This document shows positions 16,656 to 53,066 of a DNA stretch of 64,000 nt, piece after piece. Origin of the DNA: an uncultured Candidatus Saccharibacteria bacterium. GTDB lineage: Bacteria; Patescibacteriota; Minisyncoccia; UBA6257; 1-14-0-10-44-23. Every line of letters starts with the position of its first letter. The first letter of the stretch is position 1. A model generated the notes under the pieces. It had not been told where the DNA came from. It saw nothing but the letters and a program-made list of their open reading frames with translations, and searched no databases. The position numbers were made by a program, and so were the translations under genes. The stretch lies in the NCBI GenBank assembly GCA_964394435.1, contig CAYMXN010000001.1, forward strand, positions 43,739 through 107,738, written 5' to 3'.

Positions 16656-18500
16656 ATGGCTAAAATAATCGGTATTGATTTAGGAACAACGAACTCGGCG
16701 GTTGCGGTTATGGAGGGTGGTGCGCCAAAGATTTTGGAAAACGCGGAGGGAAATCGCACGACTCCTTCGATTATTGCACTTACCAAGGGTGGTGAGCGTG
16801 TTGTTGGCTTATTGGCTAAGCGTCAGTCAGTCACTAATCCTAAGAACACTATTTTTTCGGTTAAGCGTTTGATTGGACGTAAGTTTTCTGATCCGGAAGT
16901 CCAGCGTGATAAGGCGTGGTTGCCATATGATATTCGTGAAAGTGCAGCTGGCGGTGTTGAGGTAAAGATGGGAGATAAGTGGCTTACGCCGGAAGAGCTT
17001 TCGGCGATGGTTTTGGCTAAGCTTAAGGCTGATGCAGAGGCGCGCTTAGGTGAGAAAGTTGAAGAGGCGGTTATTACCGTGCCTGCATATTTTGATGACA
17101 GCCAGCGTCAGGCGACTAAGAACGCCGGTGAGATTGCCGGTTTGAAGGTTCGCCGTATTATTAACGAGCCAACTGCAGCTGCGCTCGCGTACGGTTTTAA
17201 TAAAAAGAAAAACGAACAGATTGTTGTCTACGACTTTGGAGGTGGAACATTTGATATCTCTGTGCTTGAAGTTGGCGATGATGTTGTTGAGGTTAAGTCT
17301 ACGGGTGGCGACACACACCTTGGTGGTGATGATTTTGATAAGCGCATCCAGGAGTTTCTCGTCTCTGAATACAAAAAGCAGGAGGGTGTAGATATCAGCA
17401 AGGATCCGCTCGCGCTCCAGCGCTTAAAAGAGGCGGCCGAAAAAGCCAAGCACGAACTCTCTACTTCGCTTGAGACCGAGATTAACTTGCCATACATTAG
17501 TTCAGACGCTTCTGGTCCAAAACACTTCTTGATGAGGATGAGTCGGGCGAAGCTCGAAAGTTTAGTGCAGGATTATCTTGATCACTCGATTGATCTTACG
17601 CGCAAGACGGTTAAAGAGGCCGGCTTTGAGCTTAACGATATTGATGAGGTGATTCTGGTTGGTGGACAGACGCGTATGCCGGCGATGCAGGAGGCGGTTA
17701 AGAAGTTGTTTGGTAAAGATCCGCATATGGGTGTAAACCCAGACGAGGTAGTTGCGGCTGGTGCGGCTGTTCAGGCTGGTGTGCTCCAGGGAGACGTGAA
17801 AGATGTTCTGTTGTTAGACGTTACGCCGCTTTCCCTTGGTATTGAGACACTCGGTGGCGTATTTACGAAGTTGATTGAGAAAAATACGACTGTGCCGACG
17901 GCGAAGAGTCAGGTATTTTCTACAGCGGCTGATAATCAGACGAGTGTTGAGATTCACGTACTCCAGGGTGAGCGCGAGATGGCTGCCGACAACAAAACAC
18001 TTGCGCGCTTTATTCTCGACGGTATTCCTCCGGCTGCGCGCGGCACTCCACAAGTCGAGGTTAACTTTGATATTGATGCGAACGGTATTTTGAATGTAGG
18101 TGCGAAAGATAAGGCGAGTGGCAAGAGTCAGTCGGTTCGTATTGAGGCTTCAACTTCGCTTTCTAAGGAGGAGATTGAGAAGCTTAAGGCGGAGGCGGCA
18201 AAGCACGCGGATGAAGATAAGAAGAAGCGTGATGCGGCTGAAGCTCGTAATATCGCTGAAAACTTGATTTATGTTTCTGAAAAGTCACTCAAAGATGCTG
18301 GCGAGAAGGTGACGCCAGAAATCCGAGCGAGCGTTGAGGCGAAGATTAATGATTTAAAGAAGGTTAAGGACAGTGGAGATGTAGCAATCATCAAGAAAGC
18401 GACCGATGAGCTTTCGGCAGAGATTCAGAAAATCGGCGGGGCGATGTACAATAAAGAGAACAAAGCCGATGATGCTTCCTCAACAAAACAGCCTGAATAG
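16656..18500 (+). CDS. dnaK: chaperone DnaK (Hsp70)
   Basis: [28 protein letters not shown] signatures. Confidence 0.95.
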
Positions 18501-19482
18501 TATTTCCGGAGCGGATATCCGCACGACCGATGTTGATTGGTCATTGAAACACTTTTTTGTGTTGATTGTTTCGGGTGGAGTTTTTTCACTCCTTACGAGT
18601 TTTTGTTTGGCGCGGTTTAATGCGCTACCGAGTTCTTTGTGGTTGCTTTATACCGCACTTTCGATTGCAGGACTCTTTTCGGTTATTGTCTTTCAATCAC
18701 TACTCATCAAGAGTTCATTTTTGAGTTCGATTGTTGCACTCACTGAAGGTGTTTGTCTGGCTGTGTTCTTATTGAGTGATATTTCGAGCTGGTCAATTTT
18801 TGGACTCGCTTTATTTATCCTTTCGGTTTTGATTGGCTTTAAGGAGGGGAAGGTTCATCTTAATGAGCGGATGCGGATTCAGTTTGGCCGGTTTGCGCGG
18901 ATTGTGTTGGCGTGGACTACCACTGGCTTTGTTTTGTTTGTTTCGTTTTTCTATGCGAGTCTTTACCAGCAGGCGAATAGTATCTCGTTTGACGCGTTTC
19001 GATTTTTAACTGCGAATGGTGCGCCGGCAGTTGTACGCACCTTTGTTCCGGGATTTACTCCTGAAATGTCGACGGATGAGTTTTTCAGGACGTTTGCCGG
19101 TTTTCAGTTTCGTAGCAATCCGCAAATCGCTCAACTTTCCGAGGCTGATAAACAGCGCGTGTATGCCGAGCTTGGGAATCAGCTCCAGGCAAAGGTTTCT
19201 GAAGTGACTCAAACGCCAGTAGATTCACGTGAGACGATTTTGCAGTATTTTTACCGTATTGCGAATCGATACATTTCGCGGTTTAGTGCTGACGGCGCGG
19301 GTGTTATTCCGATGCTTGGCGTTGCTTTGTTTATCTACTTCACCCTAAAGCTTCTTTTTTTCTTCTATCGATATCCGATCGCTTGGTTCTGCCAGCTTGT
19401 CGTGTATAACTTGCTTTTGGCGACTAAGGTTGTCTATATTAGTACCGAACCAAGAAATAAGGAGATTATTCTTGTTAAATAA
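18469..19482 (+). CDS. multi-pass membrane protein of unknown function (start uncertain; overlaps dnaK 3' end)
   Basis: ORF track frame; 5-6 TM helices; ATG at 18469, alternative TTG about 18543. Confidence 0.4.
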
Positions 19483-19485
19483 CCT

Positions 19486-20574
19486 ATGGCTGGAGATTAC
19501 TATAAGATTTTAGGCGTTGAGAAAAATTCATCTGATGACGATATCAAAAAAGCATATCGTAAATTAGCGCAGCAGTATCACCCGGATAAAGCTTCGGGAA
19601 ACGAGCAGAAGTTTAAAGAGATTAACGAAGCGTATCAGGTGCTTTCCAATAAAGAGAAGCGTGCGCAGTATGACCGCTTTGGGAAGACATTTACTGGTGG
19701 GCAGGGTGGTGGTGCCGGGTTTTCCGGTTTCCAGGGTTTTGATTTTTCCAATATCAACTTTGATATGGGTGAGATGGGCGATTTGGGTGATATTTTTGAG
19801 TCGATGTTTGGCAGTATGGGTGGCAAGCGTCGGAAGACGTACACTCGTGGCAATGACTTACAGGCGATTCAGCAGATAACGCTTGTTGAAGCATTTACGG
19901 GAGTGAAAAAGGAGTTGCGTTTTAAAACGATGATCGCGTGCGAGCCGTGTACAGGGCTTGGGTATTTTTCAAAAGAGGGTACAAAGCAGTGTGAAACGTG
20001 TAATGGGCGCGGTGAGGTAAAAGAGGTGCGTAATAGTTTCTTTGGTAACTTCCAGCAGGTGCGTGCGTGTGATAAGTGTTTTGGTACTGGTCAGATTCCG
20101 AATAAGGTTTGTAACACTTGTAAGGGTGCGGGGCGAACTCAACAAACGAAAGTATTGACCGTAGATATTTTGCCAGGCGTAAGCGACACGCAACTGATTA
20201 AGCTCGCTGGTATGGGTGAGGCGGGTGAGCGTGGAGCTCCGGCGGGAGACCTCTATGTGCAGGTAATGATCGCACCGGACAAGGTATTTCGTCGCCAGGG
20301 CGAAGATTTGTTTATTAAGCACGAGGTTCGCCTGACTGATGTGTTATTGAATAAGAAGCTTTCGTTGCCATCAATTTCTGGTAAACAACTTTCGATTGAG
20401 ATTCCAGCAGGATTTAACTTAGCCGAGCAGCTTAAGATTTCCGGTGAAGGTATGCCACGTTTTGGCAGCAGTAGCCGCGGAAATCTGTATGTGAGTTTTG
20501 AGGTAAAAACACCAAAGAAGATTTCTTCTAAAGCGAAACAGCTCCTTGCTGATTTAGAGAGCGAACTTGATTAG
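19486..20574 (+). CDS. dnaJ: chaperone DnaJ
   Basis: J-domain DYYKILGV...HPDK, G/F-rich linker, four CxxCxGxG zinc-finger repeats. Confidence 0.9.
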
Positions 20575-24457: not shown

Positions 24458-25513
24458 ATGGCGAATCCGTCAAAAACTACAAACGTAATCATAGAGGAGT
24501 TGTTCTCTGATCTTGATCCGCGTCAGCGCAAAGTTTTAGTTAAGCGTTATGGACTTGATACAACCGACGAGATGACGTTGGCCGAGCTCGGAAAGCAGTT
24601 CGGTGTTACTCGTGAGCGCATCCGTCAGATCGAAGCACTCGCTTTAAAAGAGGTAAGCAAAAAGGCGAAGGGAGGTCATTTGAATGACATTGTTGGCGCC
24701 TCTGTTGAGCGACTCAAGGAGTCTGCTGGTGTTCGCCATGAGGGGAACTTACTTGAAGAGATAAAGATTTTTGCTCACCCGTCAGATCTCAATAAGAGTT
24801 TTGGCAATCAGGTTCGTTTCTTGCTCGAGCTTTCTGGGGTACTTACGTATCACCGTGAAGATGAGGAGCTTTTTTCGCACTGGCATCTTTCCGCCGAGCA
24901 TCAGAAGCGTGCGCTTGATTTCCTTGATACATTAATTAAACAGCTCAAGGATAAGAAGCAAGAGACTCTTCACAGCAAGAAGTTTGACGACTTCTTCCGT
25001 GAGGTAACGAAGTTGCACAAAGTTGAAGAGAAAGTTGCGCGACACTATCTTACGATTTCTAAGAAGTTTGGTAAGAACAAGTTTGGTGATTTCGGTCTCA
25101 CGGAGTGGGAAGAGGTCAACCCAAAGGTTTCTCGCGACTGGATCTATTTGATTCTCAAGAAGGCGAACCGCCCAATGCACTTTAACGAGATTGCTGAAGA
25201 GATTCGCAGGATGCGTAATGAGAAAAAGACCAATACGCAGACGATTCACAACGAACTCATCAAAGACAAGCGTTTTATCTTAGTTGGCCGTGGTATCTAT
25301 GGCCTACGCGAAAATGATGATTTCCCGGCAGGAACGATTCGCGAGGTACTTGTTCACATCTTAAAGAAGGCTGGGCCGATGAAGCCAAAAGACATCATGG
25401 CTGAAGTGCTTAAGCGTCGTATCTTTAAGGAGAACACGATCTTGTTTAACCTCCAGAATAAGAAGTATTTTGAGCGTACTACTGAAGGTAAGTACAAGCT
25501 GAAAAACGTATAA
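24458..25513 (+). CDS. DNA-binding protein with sigma-70 region-4-like HTH (N-terminal) and HARE-HTH-like winged helix (C-terminal)
   Basis: LDPRQRKVLVKRYGLDTTDEMTLAELGKQFGVTRERIRQIEALALK resembles sigma region 4; C-terminal PMHFNEIAEEI...RFILVGRGIYGLREN resembles the HARE-HTH of the RNA polymerase delta subunit. Confidence 0.5.
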   Translation: MANPSKTTNVIIEELFSDLDPRQRKVLVKRYGLDTTDEMTLAELGKQFGVTRERIRQIEALALKEVSKKAKGGHLNDIVGASVERLKESAGVRHEGNLLEEIKIFAHPSDLNKSFGNQVRFLLELSGVLTYHREDEELFSHWHLSAEHQKRALDFLDTLIKQLKDKKQETLHSKKFDDFFREVTKLHKVEEKVARHYLTISKKFGKNKFGDFGLTEWEEVNPKVSRDWIYLILKKANRPMHFNEIAEEIRRMRNEKKTNTQTIHNELIKDKRFILVGRGIYGLRENDDFPAGTIREVLVHILKKAGPMKPKDIMAEVLKRRIFKENTILFNLQNKKYFERTTEGKYKLKNV

Positions 25514-25521
25514 GAATCAAT

Positions 25522-25546
25522 GCGAGCCCTCCGGGGCTCGTTTTGA
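25522..25546 (+). terminator. rho-independent terminator
   Basis: gcgagccc-tccg-gggctcg plus tttt. Confidence 0.7.
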
Positions 25547-25591
25547 TTCTTGAGGCAATGGGCAAAGGGCGATATACTTAATACAGAACGT

Positions 25592-26884
25592 ATGAGTTTT
25601 TTTGATTTTGCACAACAGCTTTGGGGGTATACCGCCGCTTTTCTTTTAAATATCTGGCCGGTTGTTTTGTTTTTTATTCTCTTTCCTCTTTTTCGATCAG
25701 CATATCTTTTTTGGAGGCAGCAACTTTTTATCGAAGATACAAAGTGGGTTTTTCTTGAAATGATTATTCCTCGATTGCTCGAGAAGAGTCCGCGTGGAAT
25801 GGATCAGGTGCTTCAATCACTCCATCAGCTTCGAAATTCGCCAAGCACTTGGCGCGATAGATATAACGGTGGTGAGGTTACGTATTGGTTTACTCTTGAG
25901 ATGGTGAGCTTTGGCGGTCAGATTCATTTTTATATTCGCTGCGAAGAGCATTTGCGTCCTTTGGTTGAGGCGGCATTTTATTCCGCGTACCCCGATGTTG
26001 AGTTGAATGAAGTGCACGATTATATGCACACATTGCCCCATACGTATGCAGATATTCGTGCGCAGGGGTATGAGATGTGGGGGACGGAGATGACGCTTAA
26101 AAAACCATCGATGTATCCGATTAAGAGCTATCTTGATTTCGAAACTCCTGATGAGCAGTTGCAGTTTGACCCGATTTCGAGTTTCTTGGAGGTGCTTGGT
26201 CAGGTTAAAGAAAAGGAGTTTTTGGGATTGCAGTTTAATATTATTCCGCACGATCATGAGTCGTGGATTAAGCACTTTGAGGCTGATATTGATAAGCTGC
26301 GCGAACCACGCAAGATTGAGTCTGATAAAGAGGGTGGTTTTCCGATGATGATTCCAAAATCGAAGCGACAGAGCGATATTTTGGATGCAGTTGAGCGTAA
26401 TTTTTCCAAACCACCATTTGCGTGCGCGGTTCGGTTTGTGTATATGGGGCCAAAGGCTGATTTTTATGATTCGTTTGCTCGTCGTGGCATTATCAGTGCA
26501 TTTAACCAGTATTCTGCCGGTGATCTTAACGCGTTTGGTCAGAACTTTGGTATGATGACTGGCGCGAGTCCGTATAAGTTTCCGTATTTGTTTACGGGAA
26601 TTCGCAAGAAGCTGCGTAAGCAGCGCTTGTGGGGATATTACCATCACCGTGAAGCTGGTATTGAGACGTTTTTTGGTAAGCTTATTTCCTCGCATCCGCT
26701 CAACTTTAATTTTCACTCAACTGAATTTGAGCTAAACACCGAATCTTTGGCGACATTGTTTCATCCGCCAACAGGCATCGTGCTTACTGCGCCACATACA
26801 AAGCGTGTTGAGAGTAAAAAGTTTGGTGCTCCGGCTGGATTACCGATTTATGCTGATGAAAAGGTATTGGATAAATTCTTATAA
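25592..26884 (+). CDS. membrane-anchored hypothetical protein (about 430 aa); first gene of the ATPase module
   Basis: N-terminal TM AAFLLNIWPVVLFFILFPLF; ATG at 25592 preferred because TTG at 25550 abuts the terminator; no domain recognised. Confidence 0.45.
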   Translation: MSFFDFAQQLWGYTAAFLLNIWPVVLFFILFPLFRSAYLFWRQQLFIEDTKWVFLEMIIPRLLEKSPRGMDQVLQSLHQLRNSPSTWRDRYNGGEVTYWFTLEMVSFGGQIHFYIRCEEHLRPLVEAAFYSAYPDVELNEVHDYMHTLPHTYADIRAQGYEMWGTEMTLKKPSMYPIKSYLDFETPDEQLQFDPISSFLEVLGQVKEKEFLGLQFNIIPHDHESWIKHFEADIDKLREPRKIESDKEGGFPMMIPKSKRQSDILDAVERNFSKPPFACAVRFVYMGPKADFYDSFARRGIISAFNQYSAGDLNAFGQNFGMMTGASPYKFPYLFTGIRKKLRKQRLWGYYHHREAGIETFFGKLISSHPLNFNFHSTEFELNTESLATLFHPPTGIVLTAPHTKRVESKKFGAPAGLPIYADEKVLDKFL

Positions 26885-26889
26885 CTACT

Positions 26890-27540
26890 ATGGCTGACGA
26901 ACACTCATCAGGTCCGGGTTGGTTTGAGCCAGTTGTCATTGGCGTGGTTATTATTGGTATCGCGGCGTATATTTTGTCGCCGGTGTTGCGCTCGGGTTTT
27001 GATACGGCGGATCAACTCGTTAATGCTGATGTGCTTGGCGGAGCCGGTGTTGCTGCTGCTGCGTGGTGGCATCAGTGGGTGGTTCCAACGTTTGTAATTA
27101 TTGATATTATTTTGCTCGCACTTATTGTGTATTGTGGCGTGAAGTCTTGGCATACCTTTCCGAAGGTTAGTATGTTTGAGACGCCGAGTGTTGCGGTGGT
27201 GAAGCGTAAACTAAAAAAAGATAAGACTATTTTGCTTCATTGGAACAACCTTGTTGCCCGATTTAGAACAGGAACTCCGGAGAATATGCGCTTAGCAGTT
27301 ATTGAGGCGGACACTCTTGTTGATTATTTTCTCAAGAAGTCTGAATATCCGGGTGAGACGATGGCGGATCGTTTGAGCAATATTCAGCCAGGTGAGATGA
27401 AGAGCCTTGAGCGTGTCTGGAAGGCGCATCGTTTGCGTAACGATTTAGTGCACACTCCTGGGTTTGCCATTTCACAGAAAGACGCCGAGAGTTCATTACA
27501 GGCGTTTCGCGATTTCTTAATGGAGCTTGATGCGTTTTAA
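26890..27540 (+). CDS. two-TM membrane protein with cytoplasmic alpha-helical domain carrying a HEPN-like RNxxxH motif (HRLRNDLVH)
   Basis: TM helices VVIGVVIIGIAAYIL and VVPTFVIIDIILLALIVYCGV; C-terminal RNDLVH fits the Rx4-6H HEPN signature. Confidence 0.4.
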   Translation: MADEHSSGPGWFEPVVIGVVIIGIAAYILSPVLRSGFDTADQLVNADVLGGAGVAAAAWWHQWVVPTFVIIDIILLALIVYCGVKSWHTFPKVSMFETPSVAVVKRKLKKDKTILLHWNNLVARFRTGTPENMRLAVIEADTLVDYFLKKSEYPGETMADRLSNIQPGEMKSLERVWKAHRLRNDLVHTPGFAISQKDAESSLQAFRDFLMELDAF

Positions 27541-27549
27541 TCTATTATT

Positions 27550-28938
27550 ATGGCTGATCAGCAGCCGGCGTTATCTGCCGGGGTAAAATTACAAACTGTG
27601 AAATATGCGCCGCCACCGGCGCAGCTTCCGGTTTTAGGTAAGGTTGATACTAACGAGACTTCTTTTATCGGGAAGACGAACTATGTTGCCGCACTTGAAG
27701 AAAAGAAGTATGTATTTGGCATTAAGCGAGTCGATCGGCGCCGAAATGTATATATGATTGGTAAGAGTGGTACGGGTAAGACAAAGCTGATGGAGTTAAT
27801 GATCCGTCAGGATATTAGCGCGGGGAAGGGGGTGTGCGTGTTTGATCAGCACGGCGATTTAATCGATGATATTTTGGACTTTATTCCTGAAAGTCGGGCT
27901 GAAGATGTTTTGGTGATTGACCCATCCGATATTGAGTGTCCGGTCGCTTTTAATCCGCTTTCAAATATTGAGCCGGCGTTTCGGCATCAGTTTGCCCAGG
28001 GACTTATTGAGATACTTGAGTCGCAGTTTGGCGCGAGTTGGAACGCTCACATTGAGCATGTATTTCGTTTTATTGTGCTCGCACTTTTAGATTATCCGCA
28101 GGCGACGATGCGAGGTATGATCTCGATGCTTACTGATGCTGCGTATCGCGCACAAGTTATTCCGTACATCACTGATGAGATGGTGCAGCGATTTTGGCGG
28201 GATGAGTTTGTCGCCTGGTCGACTAAGACAGAGAAGGTTGAGGCCGAGGCGGTTGCTCCGCTTGTAAATAAGCTGGCTCAATTTTTTTCTGATCCACTTT
28301 TGCGCTCAATTTTTACTAAGCAGGAAAATGCGATTGACGTGAATGAGTGGTTGCGGGGACAGAAGATCGTGTTAATTAATCTTAACAAGGGGAAGCTCGG
28401 TAAGGAGAACTCGAGTTTTTTTGGTGGACTTTTCCTAATTAAGCTTAAGCAGGCGGGTATGGCACGTTTAAGTCAGCCCGAAGCTTCGCGGAAGGATTTT
28501 AATGTGTATATTGATGAGTTTCATCATCTGATTACCGAAACGTTTGAGAGTTTGTTATTTGAAGGGAAGAAGTATCATATCTCGTTTACTATCGCTCATC
28601 AGTATCTTGGTCAAATTATCGAACATTTTCGGTCATCGATTTTTGGTAACGTGGGTACGATTATTGTATTTCGAGTTGGCGGAGAGGATGCGGAGCGCCT
28701 TGAGAGTGAACTTGCTCCGGTCTTTAAAGTTAAAGATATGATCAACCTTGGTAAGCGTGAGTTTTATATCAAGATGGTGATTGACGGTGAGCCGTGTGAC
28801 CCATTTTCCGCAGAGACGCTTAAGGTTTTGCTTCCTAATACTCCTTCGGCCCGTGAGCAGATTATGAAAACATTTCGGGGCAGGTATTGCCATCCCGCAG
28901 TTAGTGAGCGTACATCCGTGCCTCCGCCAGCTCATTAG
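27550..28938 (+). CDS. FtsK-HerA superfamily P-loop ATPase, TraD/TraG/VirD4 coupling-protein-like (no TM)
   Basis: Walker A YMIGKSGTGKTKLM, Walker B VYIDEFHHL, IAHQYLGQ motif; tandem paralog of 29004..30884. Confidence 0.6.
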   Translation: MADQQPALSAGVKLQTVKYAPPPAQLPVLGKVDTNETSFIGKTNYVAALEEKKYVFGIKRVDRRRNVYMIGKSGTGKTKLMELMIRQDISAGKGVCVFDQHGDLIDDILDFIPESRAEDVLVIDPSDIECPVAFNPLSNIEPAFRHQFAQGLIEILESQFGASWNAHIEHVFRFIVLALLDYPQATMRGMISMLTDAAYRAQVIPYITDEMVQRFWRDEFVAWSTKTEKVEAEAVAPLVNKLAQFFSDPLLRSIFTKQENAIDVNEWLRGQKIVLINLNKGKLGKENSSFFGGLFLIKLKQAGMARLSQPEASRKDFNVYIDEFHHLITETFESLLFEGKKYHISFTIAHQYLGQIIEHFRSSIFGNVGTIIVFRVGGEDAERLESELAPVFKVKDMINLGKREFYIKMVIDGEPCDPFSAETLKVLLPNTPSAREQIMKTFRGRYCHPAVSERTSVPPPAH

Positions 28939-29003
28939 ACTTTTTTAGTCTTTTGAGGCGTGGTTATTTTACGCTATACTAATAGAGGTAACTTATTATA
29001 TCT

Positions 29004-30884
29004 ATGCATCAGCCATCTCAACCTGCGCCGGATAATAGCCAGAATGTTGTGTATTTTGCTCGCACTGATTTTCGAGGTGCGTCGAAACTTTTTGGTATAA
29101 AACGTAAGGATCGTCGGCAGCATATGTACGTAATCGGTAAAACCGGTACGGGCAAGTCTGCTTTTTTGCATAATTTAATTGCGCAGGATATTGCGAATGG
29201 TGATGGGTTGTGTGTGGTTGATCCACACGGTGAGTTGATTGAGGGGGTGCTTTCGATGATTCCAAGAGAACGCATTAAAGATGTGGTGTATTTTAATCCG
29301 GCGGACATCGATTACCATATGGGGTTTAATGTGCTCGAGCTTCCAGATCCTCGGTACAAGCACTTAGTCGCTTCGGGTCTTATGGGTATTTTTACAAAAA
29401 TCTGGAGCAATGTATGGAGTGCGCGTATGGAGTACATTATGAACAACGCGATTTTGGCTTTGCTTGATACTCCAAACACTACACTGCTTGGTATCCCGCG
29501 TTTGCTTGTCGATAAAAACTACCGGCAGCGTATTGTGAATAACGTAAAAGATCCGGTTGTCCGTGCATTTTGGGTTAACGAGTACGAGGAGTGGCAAGAT
29601 AAGTTTCGCTCTGAAGCTATCGCTCCAATTCAGAACAAGGTCGGACAGTTTTTGTCGACTTCGATTATTCGTAATGTCGTCGGACAGACGACGAGTACGA
29701 TTGATATTTTTGATATTATGAATAGTCGAAAAATCTTTTTGGTTAACGTGTCTAAAGGACGTATCGGTGAAGATAACTCGGCACTTTTAGGTGCGATGCT
29801 GATTACTAAGATTCAGCTTTCGGCGATGGAGCGCGTGCGTATTCCTGAAGACGAGCGTAAAGATTTTTATTTATATGTTGACGAGTTTCAGAACTTTGCG
29901 ACGGATTCATTTGCGAGCGTGCTCTCTGAAGCACGTAAGTATCGCTTAGACCTGATTATCGCTCACCAATATGTTGGTCAGCTCGTAACTGATGTTTCAA
30001 CAAAGGTACGTGATGCGGTATTTGGAAACACCGGTACGATGGTGGTGTTTCGGGTTGGTGCGGCTGATGCGGAGTTTTTAGAAAACGAGTTTGCACCTGA
30101 ATTTACTGTTGAGGACATTGTTAATCTTCCAAACTATCATATTTATCTCAAGTTAATGGTTGATGGGTTTACGGCACGACCATTTTCTGCTGCGACCATA
30201 GCGCCGTTTAAGAGTAGGGGTGGTTCGGCGGGGTTGGATGAGATTATTACCGCTTCTCGGCAGCGATATGCGCGTCGACGTGAGGATATTGAGGCGGCGA
30301 TTAACCGATGGGCGAGCGGTACGGGCGTAGAGGCTGAAGATGATGCGCCGCGTCGTTCAAATATTGATACAACAACTGCTTCGCCTGCTCCCGCACCAAC
30401 TCATACCGGGACTGCGAAAACTCAAAGCGCGGCGCCAGCTCGTTCGGGCGAGCGATCTTCTGATGAGATGACTATTGCGGTCTGCTCTTCGTGTGGTAAA
30501 GAGGCGAAGTTGCCGTTTAAGCCAACGCCGGGACGACCAGTGTATTGTTCGGATTGTATGAATAAGATTCAGAAGGGTGAGCTTAAGCCGGTTAAGTCGA
30601 TTAAGAAGCCAACTCAAGAACTTATGGATAAGGGGGTTTCTTCGCTCGCTTCGATTGGTATCGAGTTTGAGGCTCCGAAACAATCTCGGCCGGCGTCTTC
30701 TTCGCAGCCGCGCAACGATCAGCGCCTACATCAGCGAGCACGTGGCGGCGGAGGTACTCAAAAGAAAGAGGTTTCGCTTTCTGAACTCCATCCGCGTAAT
30801 GATAAGCCTAAGCTTAAGGAGGTGCAGAGCTCGGATATCGAGAAGATGAAGCAGCAGCTTTCGCAAGCCTCACATCAGCCATAG
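29004..30884 (+). CDS. TraD/VirD4-like P-loop ATPase paralog with disordered C-terminal extension and CxxC...CxxC zinc ribbon
   Basis: Walker A YVIGKTGTGKSAFL, Walker B LYVDEFQNF, IAHQYVGQ; C-terminal CSSCGKEAKLPFKPTPGRPVYCSDC; RBS gaggta. Confidence 0.6.
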   Translation: MHQPSQPAPDNSQNVVYFARTDFRGASKLFGIKRKDRRQHMYVIGKTGTGKSAFLHNLIAQDIANGDGLCVVDPHGELIEGVLSMIPRERIKDVVYFNPADIDYHMGFNVLELPDPRYKHLVASGLMGIFTKIWSNVWSARMEYIMNNAILALLDTPNTTLLGIPRLLVDKNYRQRIVNNVKDPVVRAFWVNEYEEWQDKFRSEAIAPIQNKVGQFLSTSIIRNVVGQTTSTIDIFDIMNSRKIFLVNVSKGRIGEDNSALLGAMLITKIQLSAMERVRIPEDERKDFYLYVDEFQNFATDSFASVLSEARKYRLDLIIAHQYVGQLVTDVSTKVRDAVFGNTGTMVVFRVGAADAEFLENEFAPEFTVEDIVNLPNYHIYLKLMVDGFTARPFSAATIAPFKSRGGSAGLDEIITASRQRYARRREDIEAAINRWASGTGVEAEDDAPRRSNIDTTTASPAPAPTHTGTAKTQSAAPARSGERSSDEMTIAVCSSCGKEAKLPFKPTPGRPVYCSDCMNKIQKGELKPVKSIKKPTQELMDKGVSSLASIGIEFEAPKQSRPASSSQPRNDQRLHQRARGGGGTQKKEVSLSELHPRNDKPKLKEVQSSDIEKMKQQLSQASHQP

Positions 30885-30923
30885 TTTTTTCCCCGGTATT
30901 TGGTAAACTTAATAGCGTACGTA

Positions 30924-32570
30924 ATGAATATTCCCTTTTTTAAAAAAATAACAGCTTCACGAGAGAGTAAGCGCGGACAAGGGCGTGTTGTTTTTCTTGG
31001 GAAATCGAAAAAATACAGTGAGTGGTCTAGTCGTATATTTGAATTTACTAAGCTGCATCCGGTTGAGCTAGGTGTTTTATTTGTCGCTGCCTTTTTAATT
31101 TACTCATTTACTGCTCGTGGTTCGGCTCTAGTTTTTCATCCAACTACGTGCGTAGGTGGTTGGCAAAATGCACAGAATGCTCAAGGAGCTCCTGAACTTA
31201 CGGTAGGTGCGGAGATTGATGAGTTTACTCCGACTAACTCTGCGTTATTTGTAGGCGGCGTACAGAGCATTGATTGTAGTGCGTTTTCTGGCATTCAGGC
31301 TCCAGAGGGAACGGCGATTGAGGCGTTAAGTTTGTCGTTTTCATTAGGTGTGAAAAAAGTTTCAATTTCTGCCAATCCAGAAGGAGAAAACCCAGCTCCG
31401 ATTGATGGTGGGGTCCAACTTATTCTTAATCCAGATGGATCTTCATCGGGCAGTCCAGCAGTTGAGTCTCCCGCTTCTTCGAACGAGCCGATCGTTTTGC
31501 CGGAGCAGTCGGTTACGCCCGTAGCTCCTGTTGAGGTTCCAGTTCAGACTCCGGTGCAATCAGAAGTCCCGACTCAACAGCAGGATGTGCCTGCAGAAGT
31601 TCCAGCTCAACAAAATGCGCCCGCACCTACTGAAAATGCGCCACAATCCTCGTGGTTTGTTCCGGTTGCATTAGCTCAAGAGGTGAGTGATAGTGTTCAG
31701 TCGATTGATATTGTACAGAGCTCATTGCCGCTTGGGCGCATCTCGTACTCATTCGATGGTTCGATTTGGTACGACCTTGGTACATTTGATGAAAAGAGTT
31801 TTGCTAACCTCGCGTATCAGATTCCGGTACTCCAGGGCTCAATGACTAGTGAAGCTTCGACGACTTCGCATGGTCCGGAGATTACCAGTTGGGCTGATTT
31901 AGCTCAATTACGTGTTCGCATTGATAGCGATGTACTTACGCTCGACACCCGCTATGAGGTGTATCTTGATGGTGTTTCAGTTGAGGCGTCGTATTCTGAC
32001 GTTCCTAAGGTCCCTGAAGCTACTCCGCAGCCTTCGGCGAGCGAACCTGTAGTCGCAGATTCTCAAGCGAGTACTACTAAGGCTGATCTCGTTGAGCAGC
32101 CAGTTGCTTTATTGCCAGAACAACTTCCTCTGATTAATCCAACCGAGAGTCCGTTTGCTTATATTCCATCTCGTGCGCTACGCCTTTTGACCGGACGGGC
32201 TATACAGAGCGTTATCTCGTTGCCGTGGCAAGATGTGAATGAGGCAAAAAAGCGTCTAAAAGAGCTTAGCGGTAGCGCTTCGGTTACATATGACGCAGAG
32301 CGTGAGGATATCGTTCTTGATGGTACGTGTAACGAAGAGTACTATGTCGTTTTGATTTTTAGAAAAGCCGATGACTATCAGAAGAATCCGAATACTGCGG
32401 TTTATAACTCCGCATCACAGTGTAGTGGTTCTTTCTCGGTTGCCCTTGGGCCAATCATTGAAAGTATCGGCAATCTCAAGGCAGGTACGTACCACATCTT
32501 AGTTGCTAGTCAGTCCGAGGGTGGTGGGTGGATTCCAATTTCTCCAATCGCTCCATTTCAGGTAGAATAA
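30924..32570 (+). CDS. membrane-anchored surface protein with Pro/Gln/Val-rich spacer and conserved C-terminal domain shared with 38510..39040
   Basis: TM LGVLFVAAFLIYSF; PVAPVEVPVQTPVQSEVPTQQQD linker; C-terminal EEYYVVLIFRKADDYQKNPNTAVYNSASQCSG. Confidence 0.5.
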   Translation: MNIPFFKKITASRESKRGQGRVVFLGKSKKYSEWSSRIFEFTKLHPVELGVLFVAAFLIYSFTARGSALVFHPTTCVGGWQNAQNAQGAPELTVGAEIDEFTPTNSALFVGGVQSIDCSAFSGIQAPEGTAIEALSLSFSLGVKKVSISANPEGENPAPIDGGVQLILNPDGSSSGSPAVESPASSNEPIVLPEQSVTPVAPVEVPVQTPVQSEVPTQQQDVPAEVPAQQNAPAPTENAPQSSWFVPVALAQEVSDSVQSIDIVQSSLPLGRISYSFDGSIWYDLGTFDEKSFANLAYQIPVLQGSMTSEASTTSHGPEITSWADLAQLRVRIDSDVLTLDTRYEVYLDGVSVEASYSDVPKVPEATPQPSASEPVVADSQASTTKADLVEQPVALLPEQLPLINPTESPFAYIPSRALRLLTGRAIQSVISLPWQDVNEAKKRLKELSGSASVTYDAEREDIVLDGTCNEEYYVVLIFRKADDYQKNPNTAVYNSASQCSGSFSVALGPIIESIGNLKAGTYHILVASQSEGGGWIPISPIAPFQVE

Positions 32571-32590
32571 CAACTGGTGCATTTTTCGAT

Positions 32591-33220
32591 ATGAAACCGA
32601 ATTTTAAATCACTTACTCAATCAAACATTATTCTTGTTGTCGACCCTCAAAAAACGGTCGCGCCCGAGAATCGTGATTTTGTTGACTTGTTTGGTCCCGC
32701 TGATTCTGCTGGCTCGCAGTTTGTAGATGATCCGGTTATTCGCTCAAAATTTATGGTTGTGCCGAAGCTTCAGCTTCGCGTTACTCTTGAAAATGTGCGC
32801 TTGCGCATCGACGATGATTCGAAGGCGCAGCCAGCTCAATCTATCTTGGTTCGTGAAGCTATGCGTGCCTATACAAAGCTCTTTAAGCAGGTTCAGCTTA
32901 CTGCGATCGGCTTTAATTTTGATATTATGTATCGATTTGAAAAAATGATTCCGACGGATTATCTTTTTAAACATTTCGCTGACGAGAAGCTTCTTAAAAA
33001 AGGTACGTTTTTTGATTTTGGTATTCAATTCGCCCTCGATCGTGAAGGGGGAAGGGCTCAAGAGGTTGTGTTTTTGAAGATGCCATCGGCTCTCGAGCTT
33101 GCCGTGCATTACAACTACCATCTTAATGCGCGCGAGCTACCAAAGAGCGAAAAACTTCAGCAGATTTTTGAAAAGGCATATGAACAAGTCGATGAGATTA
33201 TCGAGCATTTAAAGTTCTAA
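32591..33220 (+). CDS. hypothetical cytoplasmic protein (about 209 aa)
   Basis: Internal ATG of ORF 32528..33220; no motif recognised. Confidence 0.4.
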   Translation: MKPNFKSLTQSNIILVVDPQKTVAPENRDFVDLFGPADSAGSQFVDDPVIRSKFMVVPKLQLRVTLENVRLRIDDDSKAQPAQSILVREAMRAYTKLFKQVQLTAIGFNFDIMYRFEKMIPTDYLFKHFADEKLLKKGTFFDFGIQFALDREGGRAQEVVFLKMPSALELAVHYNYHLNARELPKSEKLQQIFEKAYEQVDEIIEHLKF

Positions 33221-33223
33221 TAT

Positions 33224-34684
33224 ATGTCTATCGTTGATAACAAAGTACAATTTGATCCGAAGTTGAAGCGTCGAAAGTTTGCGCTGGTGTTATTAACTGG
33301 TTTTGAGGTGGTTCTTACGTTTGCACTCTCGAGTGTTTTAGTTGTAGGGAGATGGCTCTCTCCGTCTTCTAGTGCTGCAGTTGGTGTGCCAAACAAGCTT
33401 TCGTATCAGGGGCGATTGACTGACACTTCGGGAAATGCTTTGGGTGGAAGTGGTACAAACTATTGCTTTCGATTTTCGCTGTATGACTCTGCGTTGGGTG
33501 GAAGTAAGATTTGGCCATCTGGTACGCCTGCCTCGTCGACCTTAAGTGTGGTAAACGGTGTTTTTAGTGCGACCATTGGTCAGGCGGACACGCTTGATTA
33601 TAATTTTTATGCAACTGATACGGTGTATTTAAATGTTGAGGTAAATACCTCTACCTCAACGTGTCACGCGGCTAACTTTGAGTCGATGACGCCACGTCAA
33701 CAGGTACTTGCGACGGGTTTTGCGATTACTTCGCAGAACGTGTACGGAAGTTTGCTAAAGACGGACATCTCGGCCTCTTCGGTGCAGATCGGAACAGGCT
33801 CGGGTAGCTCTGCTCCAAAGTTTTTAACGCTTGATGTCCAAAACACTGCTGCAACACTCGGATCTTCCTGCTCGGTCAATGGTCAGCTGTGGTACAACTC
33901 AAACGCTTCGAATACCCAGGCGCTTATTTGTGAAAATAGTGTTATTCGTCCAGTTACTGATCAGTTTGTTTTAAGCTTTTACCCAACAATCCCATTGCCA
34001 GTCGCCTCATCAACCAATAACAGCGGAACGACTGGCGCAGGAACAAACGTTACGGCTTCATTTCACGTTTCGCCGCTTGTGCTTGAACACGCTGTTTCTT
34101 TCTCGAGGGTTAATCTCTGGGTGTCGCATGTGACGATTGCGGGAACTGGGTCTGGATCTGTGGCTAAGTATGTTGGTATCTATACCCTAAATAGTGGTAC
34201 CGCCTTGTCTCGTCTCTCGTCGTTTATGTTTAGACAGGAGGTGAGCCAGAACAGTGTTACAGCACAGAGCCACCGTTTTTACTGGGGAACTAATAGTACT
34301 TCGAATAGTTCTTCTTCGGGAGGTAACATTTCAGCTAACTACGCTGGTGTTCGCGCACTTCCAATTTTTACGGGTAATACTTCATTGTCTGCAGGAAAGT
34401 ATTATCTTGTGCAGGCGATGGTAAACGTGAGCGCTGGTTCGAACATTGTCGCTTCGTATAATAATATGTATGTTTCTTTCTCGCAGACAACTGCTGCGCA
34501 GCTTGGTTCGGCGGTAACGACTGCTTTTAATCCTTTGCTTGGACAGTTTTCTTCGACTTCAACGTTTGGTGATTTAACTTCGCCTTTTATGCCGGCTTCG
34601 ATTCATACGAGCGTTATTACGAATACCGGTGGTACGAGTCAGTGGAAGTCGAATTTTATTCAGCTTATCGGCACCCAGCTTTAA
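33224..34684 (+). CDS. membrane-anchored Ser/Thr/Asn/Gly-rich surface protein (tail-fibre-like N-terminal motif SYQGRL)
   Basis: Signal-anchor ALVLLTGFEVVLTFALSSVLVV; low-complexity beta-rich composition. Confidence 0.5.
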   Translation: MSIVDNKVQFDPKLKRRKFALVLLTGFEVVLTFALSSVLVVGRWLSPSSSAAVGVPNKLSYQGRLTDTSGNALGGSGTNYCFRFSLYDSALGGSKIWPSGTPASSTLSVVNGVFSATIGQADTLDYNFYATDTVYLNVEVNTSTSTCHAANFESMTPRQQVLATGFAITSQNVYGSLLKTDISASSVQIGTGSGSSAPKFLTLDVQNTAATLGSSCSVNGQLWYNSNASNTQALICENSVIRPVTDQFVLSFYPTIPLPVASSTNNSGTTGAGTNVTASFHVSPLVLEHAVSFSRVNLWVSHVTIAGTGSGSVAKYVGIYTLNSGTALSRLSSFMFRQEVSQNSVTAQSHRFYWGTNSTSNSSSSGGNISANYAGVRALPIFTGNTSLSAGKYYLVQAMVNVSAGSNIVASYNNMYVSFSQTTAAQLGSAVTTAFNPLLGQFSSTSTFGDLTSPFMPASIHTSVITNTGGTSQWKSNFIQLIGTQL

Positions 34685-34687
34685 CGT

Positions 34688-35416
34688 ATGAAGCCGGCAG
34701 TTGTTTTTGAAAATCTTAACCTTGGTCTTCATAACGCTGACTTGGCAGCCTCTGCGGAGCGGTTAGCAAAAGGTAAGACATATCGTGATTTGTCGACGAT
34801 TATTTTGTGTCCTACGCGCGGTATGATCCCTGATCGCGTTGTTCAGTCTTGGATGGGTCTTATTAGGCCGATGAACCAAAAAGTTATCGGACCATTATTT
34901 ATTCGTGGGTATGAGGTTGGTGAGGCGTATAATATGGGGATACAAATGGTACTTTCTAATCCCGAGCTTTCGAAGTGGAAGTATATTTTGACCGTGGAAG
35001 AAGATAATATTCCACCTCCCGATGGGTTGATTCGTTTGTATGAGAGTATGGATGATTTTGATGTCGTGGGTGGCTTATATTGGACTAAGGGTGAGGGTGG
35101 TCAACCAATGATTTATGGCGATCCGGCGGTTGAGCCATTTAACTTTATTCCTCAACTGCCTAAGGCGAATACTGTCCAGCCGGCTAATGGGCTCGGTATG
35201 GGTTTTAATTTATGGAAGATTGAGATGTTTAAAGATTCTAGGCTTAAGCAGCCATGGTTTCAGACACTTAATGACTTGTATCCTGGGGAGGGTACGAAAG
35301 TATATACGCAAGATTTGTATTTTTTTGAGCACGCGAGTAAACTTGGATATAAATTTGCCTGTGATACACGCGTAAAGGTTGGGCACTATGACGCGGGCAT
35401 GGATATTGTTTGGTAG
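34688..35416 (+). CDS. putative glycosyltransferase (GT-A fold, GT2-like)
   Basis: ILCPTRG beta1, acidic EEDNIPPPD (DxD-like), VVGGLY, QDLYFFEHASKLGYKF pattern. Confidence 0.45.
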   Translation: MKPAVVFENLNLGLHNADLAASAERLAKGKTYRDLSTIILCPTRGMIPDRVVQSWMGLIRPMNQKVIGPLFIRGYEVGEAYNMGIQMVLSNPELSKWKYILTVEEDNIPPPDGLIRLYESMDDFDVVGGLYWTKGEGGQPMIYGDPAVEPFNFIPQLPKANTVQPANGLGMGFNLWKIEMFKDSRLKQPWFQTLNDLYPGEGTKVYTQDLYFFEHASKLGYKFACDTRVKVGHYDAGMDIVW

Positions 35417-39498: not shown

Positions 39499-42400
39499 AT
39501 GAGTAATACAAAGACTTTTTTGTTCTACATATTGTTCGCTTTTGGCCTACTAGTTTCTTTTCCGTCTTCGGCAGCGGCAGCGATTTCATTAGTTCAATCC
39601 AATTCGACCTATCCCGGTGGTACCGGTCCGACCGGGCTCGCGTTTAGTTCCAATAATACTGCGGGAAATCTTATCGTGGTTGGGGTGCAGGGGGCTAATA
39701 ACTCGGCTGACCCGACGATTACTGATACTCGGGGTAATACGTATGTAAAAGTTGGTTCGGTTCACGGCGGAAGCGGCACTGCGTATTCGTATTTGTATTA
39801 TGCGAAGAATATTGCGGCTGGAGCGAACACAGTTACGGTTACGTTGCCGAATGGAAATGACCTTGGGTTTCATATTTCCGAGTGGAGTGGCGTAGATACT
39901 ACGTCGCCATTTAATGCTTCTTCGAGCGATGTTGCTACTTCTTCAGTTACTGTTTGGTCGACTACTAACCTTACGACAACTGCGGCTGACACGGTATTGA
40001 TAGCGTTTACAGGTACCGAAAATTCGGCCGAGACATTTACCGCTGGAACAAATTTTACTAAGCTAACCGAGCAGACTTCGCACTCTTCGATGGTACAGTA
40101 TCGCATCGTTTCTTCGGCTGGTACGTATCGTGCGACTGCTACTGTAAGCAACGCAGATAACGCGTGGGTGATGATTATGGGTGCGTTTAAGGCTGCGAAT
40201 ACAATTACTCCTACTAAGGTTGTTTTTAATCCATTTTCAGCGCGGTCAAAAACGTTCTTTTTAGACCCTCCTGCCTTTAATAGTATTAGCGGATACACTT
40301 CTTCGACTTCATTTAAGGAGCTTGCGGCAGGTGGTCAGCCGGCTGATGGTTTTTCTTCATCGACGAGTTATAAGCCGTGTGCCGGCCAGTTATGTACTTT
40401 TTTCTTGACTAATGACCCTAATCCGGCCAGCATCGCTTATCTTACTGGTTATCGGTGGTACTCAAATGCAGATGCAGTTACTACCGGATCTACTCTAGCT
40501 GCTACTAATGCTACGACGACCGCTCCAGCGCAAGGCACCCCGCTTCGCTTAAGGGCTGTTTTGCATATGCCAGTTGATTACTCAATCGGACCAACATCTT
40601 CAACTCTTCCCGTCTCTGGCATTAATAACACAGTTACTGGAGCGACAGCGTGGACGAATACGAATAATGTAACGAGTAGCGATAACTCATACGCAACGGT
40701 CGTACTTCCAAATGCTACATTGCCTAGTAATTATATTGAGGCGAAGAATTTTGGTTTTAGTTTGCCGGCGAGTTCAACGATTACCGGTATTTATGTTGAG
40801 GTTGATCGCAAAGACGATGGCTCAAAATTGAAAGATGCGTTTGTTTCTATCTTTAAGACCGACGGTTCGCCAAATCTTGGTACTGCGAGTACTTCGTTCT
40901 GGACCAGTACCGAGCAAACAGCAACGTATGGTGGTCAGTACGATCTCTGGAGCACGAGTTTTACCGCGGCTGATATTAATAGTCCTGATTTTGGTTTTGG
41001 TATTGGAGTATGGGGCGATTCAGTGGCTTGTGCTGGAGGATGTACCGCTTCAGTTGATGCGATTCGTGTCACCGTTTACTATCAGCCAGAAAATTTAAAG
41101 TTGCAGTACGCGGCTAAGTCGGGAACATGCGATACAGCTTTTTCAGGAGAGACGTATGTGGATGTGGCGACAAGTAGTGGGGCAATTCGTTTTTATAACA
41201 ATACAACTCCTAGCGATAATGATACGATTACTGCTTCTTCGAGTGATCCGACGCACGGCACTGATACTGTGGTTGCCCAGACGTATCAAGAATCAAATAA
41301 TTTTGGCGTAACGAGTACTGTTCCTGCGGGTAATGATGGACTTTGGGATTTTTCACTAGTTGATTATAGTGCGACAGCAAATACTGACTATTGTTTTCGA
41401 GTTGTTTCGAGTAGTGGGGCCACTTCGACGCCTGACTATGTTCCTGAATTTACCACTGCCGCAGCCGGTGCGGGTATAACTATCTCGGGAACTGTGTATT
41501 CAGATGCTGGAATTACAACAACTACTTCGTCCGTATCGCTTTCGATTAACGGTGGCACAAAAACAACCGTTTCTACTAATGGTAGCGGAGTCTTTACTTT
41601 TTCGAGCGTGACTACACCCAACGCTGCTGATGTGATTACTGTTTGGATGGACAATAACGGCGGAGGAAATGGAACGGGGGCGACTGTTACTCGTTATAGT
41701 GGCAGCGGTGATCTTACTGGGTTGGATATCTATAGGAGTCGAATGATTGTTCGACATGAGGATGCTGGGCCAATTATTAACACTGATATTGATGCGTGTA
41801 CAAAGACACTTGGAGCTGGTTGTGCAGATAGTGATATTCATTTCGATGTTTCGGGTGGTGCGCTGACGGTTGATAGTGATTGGGGTTTGTACGTTTGGGG
41901 AGGAGATACCTTTACTCCCGGAGGGGCGGTGACGCTTACTGCTGGTGCTGCGTCTTCGACTCCGGGCGGAGATTTGACCTGGGGTTCTTCATCTTCGACG
42001 TTAAGTATGTCGACTAACGCGCTTTCGGTGGGGGGCGATTGGCGCAATGATGTCGGTGGAACTGCTACGATAACGAGTAGTGCGGTTACGTTTACGGCTA
42101 CTCAACCGGGAATGGTGATTAATAGTGGGAACAAGAACTTTGGGAGTGTGACGTTTAATGGTGTAGGTGGAACTTGGTCGGCGTCAACCAGTCAAATGGT
42201 AATTACGGGAAGTACTGGGCTTACGATGACCGCGGGGACACTTAATAATGTGATGGGTTCGGCACCAATAACTGTAAGTGGTAATGGAAACGTAGTTGGG
42301 AGCGGAACTGGAGATGGTGTTATTAGTCTTACCTCGAGTAAGTTTATTTTCCGGCCGGGAATTTTGGTGTCGAGGAATTTTGCGTCGGGGAATACGGTTA

Positions 42401-44073: not shown

Positions 44074-44077
44074 CTTT

Positions 44078-45193: not shown

Positions 45194-45356
45194 CAAGCTA
45201 TATTTGACCATTTCAAATATTTATTGACTTATCCACAGTTTTGATTTGTTTTGTAAAGTAGGGATGTGAGCTTTCGTGTTATACTAAGTGTAAATAAATC
45301 GTGTGGATTTATTTTGTAGCTTTTATTACTAATTATTAATTAATTCTTTGACTATC

Positions 45357-46610: not shown

Positions 46611-46615
46611 CAGTT

Positions 46616-47551: not shown

Positions 47552-47570
47552 CGACTTATTATTTCTTTTC

Positions 47571-51451: not shown

Positions 51452-51470
51452 GGTATACTGTGAAGTAGCT

Positions 51471-52898: not shown

Positions 52899-53066
52899 TG
52901 CGTATATGGATACTCTGACACGTACTGCTGAATTTTTTCTGATGGCGTTCTTGCTTTTATTTGTTTGCGTATCGATGAATGGCGTGTTGCGGGTCTTTAT
53001 TTTGAGTTGGCTGATACTTTTAGGATTGTATATTTCGACGGTTATATATGGACGATTAAGGTTGAT

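Follow-up and report, generated by a model that had tools for sequence, protein, structure and literature searches.

The 64,000-nucleotide stretch of DNA analysed here (contig CAYMXN010000001.1; the whole stretch is referred to below as the window) encodes two neighbouring soluble ATPases, A (positions 27550-28938, + strand, 462 amino acids) and B (29004-30884, + strand, 626 amino acids). Together with two membrane proteins encoded just upstream of them, one belonging to the family DUF8128 and the other possessing two transmembrane (TM) helices and called the 2-TM protein here, they are interpreted as a split membrane motor of the VirB4/VirD4 branch of ATPases, most likely the coupling motor of a Patescibacterial type IV secretion system (T4SS) that is encoded elsewhere, and the probability of this interpretation is put at about 0.5. 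That the pair belongs to an apparatus for the translocation or uptake of DNA or protein, as had been proposed in the original prediction made from the letters of this stretch, may reasonably be supposed.

A and B are paralogues with 38% identity over 415 amino acids (E 6e-113, BLASTP), and both open reading frames (ORFs) as well as all of the motifs quoted for them in the original prediction are present in the translations. The Walker A region of A is FGIKRVDRRRNVYMIGKSGTGKT, with GKSGTGKT at residues 71-78 (nt 27760-27783), and that of B is FGIKRKDRRQHMYVIGKTGTGKS, with GKTGTGKS at residues 45-52 (nt 29136-29159); the Walker B motifs read IDEFHH in A and VDEFQN in B, and the third motif IAHQYLGQ and IAHQYVGQ, respectively. 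The proposed VirD4/TraD-like character of the two proteins within the FtsK-HerA superfamily also held, with both scoring above the Pfam gathering thresholds for TrwB_AAD_bind (46.3 bits for A and 48.3 bits for B vs 20.5), for DUF87, the central domain of HerA, and for TraG-D_C and T4SS-DNA_transf, and with both containing the P-loop domain with an inserted all-alpha domain by which coupling proteins are recognized. FtsK_SpoIIIE reached 18.1 against a threshold of 24, in the P-loop region alone, and CagE_TrbE_VirB and AAA_10 gave no Pfam match among the window proteins. Among the NCBIfam models those of TraD/VirD4 rank first, yet far under their curated cut-offs (SXT_TraD 42.9 and 44.9 for A and B against 366, CD1115 37.3 and 46.7 against 250, TOL TraD about 32 against 648). 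The sole PDB sequence match of A and B is TrwB, to which a joint A/B profile aligns over 260 columns with 95.5% probability (E 1.4e-8, hhalign), spanning Walker A, the helical insert and Walker B, while the alignment with TrwK covers the P-loop only and that with TrsE of pGO1 the Walker B region only. In the structure comparison VirB4, TrwB, DptH and HerA were ranked well over FtsK, and weak matches to A and B were also obtained for CedD, the ATPase of archaeal DNA import. Because TrwB, TraD and VirD4 rank nearest by sequence, A and B are assigned to the VirB4/VirD4 branch of the FtsK-HerA superfamily, outside the FtsK, KaiC and RecA clades.

The claim that the two ATPases lack TM segments was borne out by hydropathy analysis, in which the maximum 19-residue Kyte-Doolittle mean is 1.13 in A and 1.07 in B, compared with 2.35-2.67 in the neighbouring membrane proteins, and by 124 homologues from 84 loci, none of which has a TM segment upstream of Walker A. 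In both proteins the lysine of Walker A, the D-E pair of Walker B and the invariant set of Arg and Gln residues are intact, and both are probably active ATPases. The ATPase core of B occupies residues ~15-445, and in its AlphaFold2 (AF2) model (predicted local distance difference test score, pLDDT, 81.5) Walker A is preceded only by a short beta hairpin at residues 15-33, with no HAS-barrel; a NurA-like neighbour was seen neither in the window nor in the ATPase-seeded loci described below. The core of B is followed by a disordered linker (residues 451-486), a zinc ribbon and conserved C-terminal helices. The presence of this ribbon, already noted in the original prediction, is established by both Pfam and NCBIfam (zf_Tbcl_2, PF23477, 58.3 bits vs 27; TIGR04272, 58.5 vs 36), with its spacing corrected from x18 to x17: the CxxC-x17-CxxC element lies at 30465-30566 on the + strand, residues 488-521, and its cysteines read CSSC-GKEAKLPFKPTPGRPVY-CSDC. 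The same domain type binds zinc in small proteins of M. mazei (PMC12704099). A has no zinc ribbon, and since the ribbon is found in 57 of 66 B-type homologues and in none of the 58 of A-type, it is taken, on the sequences compared, to track paralogue identity. Most A orthologues have a feature of their own, a conserved C-terminal tail ...KKLIEEEEASIIRSAQEKA...EPLI, which looks like a docking peptide and is absent from the A of the window and from its closest relative, P0122. [quoted passage not shown]

The DUF8128 protein is encoded at 25592-26884 on the + strand (430 amino acids from the ATG, with an alternative TTG start at 25550). Its family assignment is a precomputed database annotation, transferred from the entry P0241, which is identical over the 430 amino acids from the ATG and carries a precomputed match to PF26449 (DUF8128), as do 120 of 120 homologues among the matches listed; cluster representatives of the family number 2,706 at E<=1e-3. 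Hydropathy places a single N-terminal TM helix at residues 16-34, and the AF2 model of the protein (pLDDT 86.7, predicted template-modelling score 0.83, from an alignment of 42 sequences) consists of a long N-terminal helix holding the TM segment and a subsequent alpha/beta domain, which is read as cytoplasmic from the positive-inside charge pattern. When this model was submitted to Foldseek, the top 13 matches were all TrwK chains, from four R388 entries; the output comes without aligned ranges, and it is from the fact that DUF8128 matches no other ATPase that we infer a correspondence of its domain to the non-ATPase N-terminal domain of the VirB4 protein TrwK. The earlier statement that no VirB4 or other T4SS parts lie near A and B is therefore upheld at the level of sequence, and gives way at the level of the predicted fold, the adjoining DUF8128 protein having that of a VirB4 N-terminal domain.

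The gene between DUF8128 and A, at 26890-27540 on the + strand, encodes the 2-TM protein (216 amino acids), with TM helices at residues 15-33 and 64-82 and a cytoplasmic helical domain. Residues W118, I138, D141, G155, R161, A179, H180, R183 and N184 are invariant in this family and H188 is nearly so, and R183-N184-x3-H188, located in the cytoplasmic domain, forms an RNxxxH motif of the HEPN type. Matches to the HEPN clan are faint and sub-threshold, being obtained for 4 of 18 members (E 0.018-0.14; HEPN_RiboL-PSP, HEPN_Swt1, Hypoth_Ymh). A membrane-tethered HEPN-like domain would be unusual in a core, non-defence setting. It is possible that the 2-TM protein is a VirB3-like or accessory subunit.

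The association of these genes was assessed in two surveys, one seeded with the ATPases in GTDB species genomes (at least 590 matches, of which 80 loci were examined) and an independent one seeded with DUF8128 in 80 metagenome loci, 58 of which have at least 2.2 kb of downstream sequence. All ATPase-seeded loci with a real lineage name come from Patescibacteria, some automatic records bearing implausible labels ('Saccharibacteria', 'Gammaproteobacteria'). The order that recurs is secD, secF, sigma-r4/HARE-HTH (a gene for a protein with a sigma-70 region 4 and a HARE-HTH domain), DUF8128, the 2-TM gene where present, and ATPase, and it was met again in individual look-ups of Jorgensenbacteria and of a 552-kb contig. 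In the DUF8128-seeded survey an ATPase gene follows within 2.5 kb downstream in 57 of the 58 loci, being A-type in 56, and the 2-TM gene separates DUF8128 from the ATPase in all 58. Starting from the ATPases, DUF8128 was found just upstream of the first of them in 29 of the 53 loci whose flank was long enough. The type of ATPase that follows DUF8128 varies with the lineage, loci of the Paceibacteria type having A, and those of the Uhr-, Morani-, Falkow- and Staskawiczbacteria types having B, with its zinc ribbon, directly after DUF8128. Both A and B are present in 38 of the 80 ATPase-seeded loci, and they are adjacent, in either order, in 13. The conserved unit is thus sigma-r4/HARE-HTH, DUF8128, 2-TM and A, and the tandem A-B, which the original prediction had singled out, is not.

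In some cases the DUF8128 domain and the ATPase occur in a single polypeptide. In one locus of the Candidate Phyla Radiation (CPR), i.e. the Patescibacteria, an 834-amino-acid ORF (L079, 11191-13692) joins a TM segment to a DUF8128-like domain, with a profile E of 1.4e-18, and to an ATPase that resembles B and scores 350 bits against it. The phage protein family phrog_5156 (824 positions, annotated as of unknown function) matches DUF8128 at positions 79-208 and A and B at ~390-800, with scores (181 bits for A, positions 388-771, and 185 for B) far over those of A and B to TrwB. Represented by this family is gp156 of Bacillus phage G (825 amino acids), which is matched by the DUF8128 profile with 93.3% and by the ATPase profile with 99.9% probability (E 1.2e-34), and for which phmmer scores reach 167 bits; it has one strongly hydrophobic stretch, near residue 183, and no visible N-terminal TM helix. 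The adjoining gp155 (L170, phage G 89194-93336), annotated as VirB-like, has only the P-loop in common with A and B and matches the VirB4-like ORF fragment of a CPR locus. In the public record gp156 is annotated as 'MsbA-like', and its ATPase-only relatives in SPO1-like Bacillus phages are likewise assigned to 'lipid A export'; for gp156 this annotation looks wrong. Among 2.9 million viral contigs of IMG/VR at least 10 relatives were confirmed, all of them solitary ATPases without DUF8128. Those on the contigs L171-L177 are B-like proteins of 400-470 amino acids with at most 55% identity and no zinc ribbon, and these contigs may come from CPR phages or else be pieces of CPR DNA that were misclassified.

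The combination of fusion and near-obligate adjacency is strong evidence that DUF8128 and the ATPase act as one unit, and because of the 57/58 linkage and the natural fusions the anchor would be supplied in trans, the motor being a split one. The original prediction's tie between the ATPases and the upstream membrane proteins is supported by the same synteny and fusions. A crude neighbour-joining tree groups A and B as sisters. The single-copy ATPases from distant lineages fall within B, and outside A/B come first the fused and viral forms, next TrwB and then the VirB4s; TrwB and TrsK are excluded from the clade that A, B and the fused forms share.

In the model proposed here, in which the physical complex, its ring stoichiometry, its cargo and its link to a T4SS are all inferred, the DUF8128 protein would provide a TM helix and a VirB4-N-terminal-domain-like platform at the cytoplasmic face of the membrane, with the 2-TM protein beside it in a VirB3-like position. 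Soluble A would dock onto DUF8128 and the 2-TM protein, presumably in a hexameric ring like those of TrwB and VirB4, so that its tethering by these two proteins would rebuild the VirB3/VirB4 arrangement in trans. B, an old paralogue of A with a zinc ribbon, would either be part of the same assembly or form another ring, to which the recruitment of cargo would fall. By hydrolysing ATP, A and B would push or pull a macromolecule at the cytoplasmic membrane, be it DNA, RNA or an unfolded protein, and drive it toward a channel, most likely that of a Patescibacterial T4SS encoded elsewhere.

Among known systems, the type IV coupling proteins (T4CPs), such as TrwB of R388, VirD4 and TraD, share the nucleotide-binding domain with its inserted all-alpha domain, but A and B are without the N-terminal TM domain of these proteins, their anchor being a separate VirB4-N-terminal-domain-like protein, and they are not located beside relaxase or mating-pair formation (MPF) genes, occur as two conserved paralogues per genome and have a ribbon in B. 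With VirB4 (TrwK of R388 and VirB4 of Thermoanaerobacter pseudethanolicus) the fused relatives share the order of N-terminal domain and then ATPase, whereas in the window the module is split into separate genes, fusion being confined to L079 and gp156 of phage G; the sequence signal between the ATPases does not extend beyond the P-loop and Walker B regions, and there is none for the N-terminal domain. The genuine VirB4 of Patescibacteria is a different gene and is encoded elsewhere (PMC12102498). A stand-alone VirB4-N-terminal-like protein that accompanies a T4SS-type ATPase is likewise represented by TrsD of pGO1 and its Patescibacterial homologues (PMC12102498); DUF8128 differs from it in having no detectable sequence relation, ~2x the length and its own TM helix, and while the TrsD homologues are reported beside virB4, DUF8128 stands beside T4CP-like ATPases. 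The closest relative outside the CPR is phrog_5156/gp156 of phage G, with a DUF8128-like domain and an ATPase in one polypeptide and the VirB4-like gp155 adjoining, although gp156 is fused and phage-borne, with no visible N-terminal TM helix, no zinc ribbon and no second paralogue. The match to the EccE-EccC pair of the ESX/type VII system is much weaker, and neither further components of ESX nor WXG substrates were seen.

It has to be noted that several observations weigh against the assignment of the split motor to a T4SS encoded elsewhere. No VirB4, VirB6, relaxase, integrase or pilin gene is present in the 64-kb window, a VirB4-like fragment lies nearby in only one of ~165 related loci, and about half of the ATPase-seeded loci, those of the Nomurabacteria type, have no DUF8128 within 10 kb. 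In addition, the DUF8128 profile gave probabilities of 4.5%, 0.1% and 0.1% against TrwK of R388 (sequence NC_028464), TrsE of pGO1 and TrsD of pGO1, respectively (hhalign), and the DUF8128-VirB4 link is therefore structural only, on a predicted structure. A survey of 3,035 Patescibacteria genomes published in 2025 counted 5,713 VirD4-type homologues in 2,918 of them, ~2 per genome, with just 148 of the 5,713 located near virB4, and detected VirB4 in 2,417 genomes; transposon sequencing (Tn-seq) in Ca. Southlakia epibionticum ML1 showed that the t4cp homologue is not essential whereas the T4SS genes are, and exaptation of t4cp, in the words of that survey, 'cannot be ruled out' (PMC12102498). 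Since T4CP homologues are commoner than VirB4, and since the tested t4cp, a homologue and candidate orthologue of A or B, is non-essential, a T4SS-independent role fits these particular data at least as well. In such a role the split motor would be a self-contained translocase or processor of nucleic acid at the membrane, serving, for instance, the scavenging or export of DNA or RNA, with the ribbon of B binding nucleic acid and the membrane-tethered HEPN-like domain cutting it. The VirB4-like N-terminal domain and the membrane parts that the module has of its own, the invariant RNxxxH of the 2-TM protein with its faint HEPN-clan matches and the weak CedD matches all speak for this possibility, which is nevertheless regarded as rather unlikely, because the conserved module has three TM helices in all and no polytopic channel-forming protein, because the HEPN assignment falls below threshold, and because the fused homologue of phage G adjoins a VirB4-like gene, which favours cooperation of the two types of ATPase. 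A bolder version, held to be doubtful, regards DUF8128, the 2-TM protein, A and B as a self-contained and hitherto unrecognized machine for moving macromolecules, of a third lineage alongside VirB4 and VirD4 whose ancestor would have been one polypeptide with an N-terminal domain and an ATPase. CPR bacteria would use it to move and process nucleic acids independently of their T4SS, e.g. to obtain host RNA or DNA as a source of nucleotides; if true, this would explain why the module is more universal than VirB4 in auxotrophic episymbionts.

The remaining explanations are considerably less probable. The near-universal distribution of A and B, their high conservation and their housekeeping neighbourhood would suit FtsK-like DNA pumps acting in chromosome segregation or division, with DUF8128 as the tether to the membrane or septum, yet this is improbable in view of the sub-threshold FtsK_SpoIIIE score of 18.1 vs 24, confined to the P-loop, of the structural ranking with VirB4, TrwB, DptH and HerA well over FtsK, and of the non-essential t4cp homologue. 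Mentions of FtsK in papers on the Saccharibacterium TM7x also suggest that a canonical FtsK may be present in CPR bacteria. A role in defence or conflict, or an origin as a phage module that was domesticated, with a DptH/HerA/MADS-type ATPase, a HEPN effector and a sigma-like regulator as the parts, is suggested by matches to mad8 in PADLOC (37.5 and 50.4 bits), by weak ones to DndH and HerA, by MzaA being the best match of the sigma-r4 protein (in region 4 only), by the HEPN-like motif and by the phage-borne nature of the closest relatives outside the CPR, phrog_5156 and gp156. The chances of this explanation are at least as slim: the place of the module by secDF is fixed in many lineages, ~96% of genomes have VirD4-type homologues and the conservation is unusually high, while defence systems are patchy and mobile; the PADLOC and NCBIfam matches cover generic ATPase or region-4 parts at scores far under the family cut-offs, and the viral relatives, at least 10 in 2.9 million contigs, are all solitary and lack DUF8128. 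As for the view that A and B serve conjugation as ordinary coupling proteins (TraD/VirD4) and are encoded on an integrated mobile element, with its remaining T4SS genes beyond the window, the database name and the Pfam T4CP domains would be in favour, but the missing N-terminal TM domain, TraD/VirD4 equivalog scores far under cut-off (e.g. 42.9 vs 366), the lack of relaxase, integrase and MPF genes, the housekeeping flanks, the uniform composition, the synteny kept across candidate phyla and the small number of relaxases (109 in 3,035 genomes, compared with 5,713 T4CP homologues; PMC12102498) effectively refute this explanation, in agreement with the original prediction that A and B are not canonical coupling proteins of a mobile element.

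The setting of the preferred split motor is that of core chromosomal DNA of a Patescibacteria (CPR) bacterium, with no mobile element. On the same strand as A and B are located dnaK and dnaJ (16.6-20.6 kb) and secD/secF (21.6-23.8 kb), along with further housekeeping genes, namely mnmA, a split comEC, lepA, murB, secA, dnaB, cysS and the gene for a penicillin-binding protein; GC content and GC skew are uniform along the window, which also has two tRNA genes, and A and B are the sole members of their ATPase family within it. In every 2-kb bin the skew has a positive value, and the long ORFs almost all belong to the + strand, which is consistent with one replichore in which genes are co-oriented with replication. 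A mobile element or phage island was considered and rejected on account of the uniform composition, the housekeeping flanks and the solitary state of the confirmed viral relatives. The genes that follow B at 30900-35416 (556, 230, 486 and 242 amino acids) were likewise rejected as parts of the module, being kept solely in the near-identical strain L001; the 486-amino-acid protein among them (33224-34684) carries a TM helix at its N-terminus and weakly resembles, with a score below cut-off, the N-terminal domain of the mosaic adhesive trimer fibre of Bdellovibrio (E 1.6e-4). ComEC does lie where the original prediction had it, with the Competence domain at 51420-52898, ~20.5 kb downstream of A and B, but the functional link suggested on that basis was discarded, no conserved neighbourhood among 165 loci including ComEC. 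The gene is apparently split into two adjacent ORFs, one with DUF4131 and Competence domains (51420-52898) and one with a metallo-beta-lactamase domain (52965-53915).

The gene immediately upstream of DUF8128, at 24458-25513 on the + strand, encodes the sigma-r4/HARE-HTH protein (351 amino acids), with a sigma-70 region 4 at residues 17-66 (Sigma70_r4, 55.3 bits), a HARE-HTH domain at residues 230-285 (38.3 bits) and no sigma region 2; its best NCBIfam and PADLOC match is MzaA. In many CPR lineages the gene keeps this place, with secF before it and DUF8128 after it; it is directly upstream of DUF8128 in 53 of the 58 DUF8128-seeded loci with a long enough upstream flank and in 32 ATPase-seeded loci, and it may be a functional member of the module. 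Between it and DUF8128 a consensus scan detected a terminator-like GC-rich hairpin followed by a T-run (25522-25541, + strand; 8-bp stem, 6 GC pairs), which is a pattern match only. Promoter-like pattern matches were obtained for TTGAGG-N17-TATACT at 25550-25578 (+ strand), 14 nt 5' of the DUF8128 ATG, and for TTGAGG-N16-TATACT at 28953-28980 (+ strand), 24 nt 5' of B; these are the only two sites of the form TTGAGG-N15-18-TATACT in 64 kb, where 0.02 are expected. The shared pair of hexamers suggests two co-regulated units, DUF8128/2-TM/A and B onward. Across the 165 loci the element recurs solely in the 95%-identical strain L001, and because of this limitation it was rejected as a regulatory signal of the whole family. 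The next gene upstream of the first promoter-like site is the one with the sigma-70 region 4.

Several further features of these loci may be mentioned. In loci with the Nomurabacteria-type order dnaK, B, A, dnaJ, the ATPases are situated inside a chaperone operon (L015, L022, L024, L026, L046 and others); in the window, dnaK and dnaJ (16656-20574) are 7 kb upstream, with a 358-amino-acid ORF without Pfam match (18406-19482) between them. In 38 of 80 genome loci A and B are flanked by tandem arrays of 2-9 Cys-rich paralogues, labelled 'c1' (e.g. L003:1-9700, L021, L031 and L057:13000-21000), cytoplasmic proteins of ~577 amino acids with ~33 Cys and zinc-ribbon motifs at both ends, none of which is encoded in the window. 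Their C-terminal ribbon shows a weak match to zf_Tbcl_2, a domain type in common with the ribbon of B, and they might be cargo or partners of B. Elsewhere in the window, a 1,524-amino-acid ORF without Pfam match (39499-44073) is followed downstream, at 46616-48509, by putative surface proteins with Big_6 and dockerin domains and a WxL-interacting peptidoglycan-binding domain just under the Pfam threshold, and the region 39499-48509 may be a cell-surface or host-interaction locus.

The existence of an A/B pair is not new, since it is already counted in the survey of Patescibacteria genomes, and the occurrence of VirD4-type homologues in 2,918 of 3,035 of these (PMC12102498) also means that the pair is not a peculiarity of the window. 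No description of the missing anchor, of the partner proteins, of the split architecture or of the conserved module was found in the literature: the main text of the preprint by Wang et al. from 2023 has neither VirD4 nor VirB4, a T4SS review from 2025 contains nothing specific on the A/B module, and a full-text literature search returned no mention of DUF8128. What was not found described elsewhere is the split hybrid of a VirB4-N-terminal domain and a VirD4-like motor, the four-gene module and the fused phage relatives.

Patescibacteria make up a large share of bacterial diversity and live attached to their hosts, with no synthesis of nucleotides, lipids and most amino acids of their own. 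The VirD4-type ATPases, present in ~96% of genomes, have hitherto been orphan 'coupling-protein homologues' with an unclear role. The present analysis replaces this orphan annotation by a defined module of four parts whose subunit contacts can be tested, gives DUF8128, a family of ~2,700 cluster representatives, a predicted fold and a probable role, and suggests that the VirB4/VirD4 superfamily includes a further lineage of hybrid architecture.

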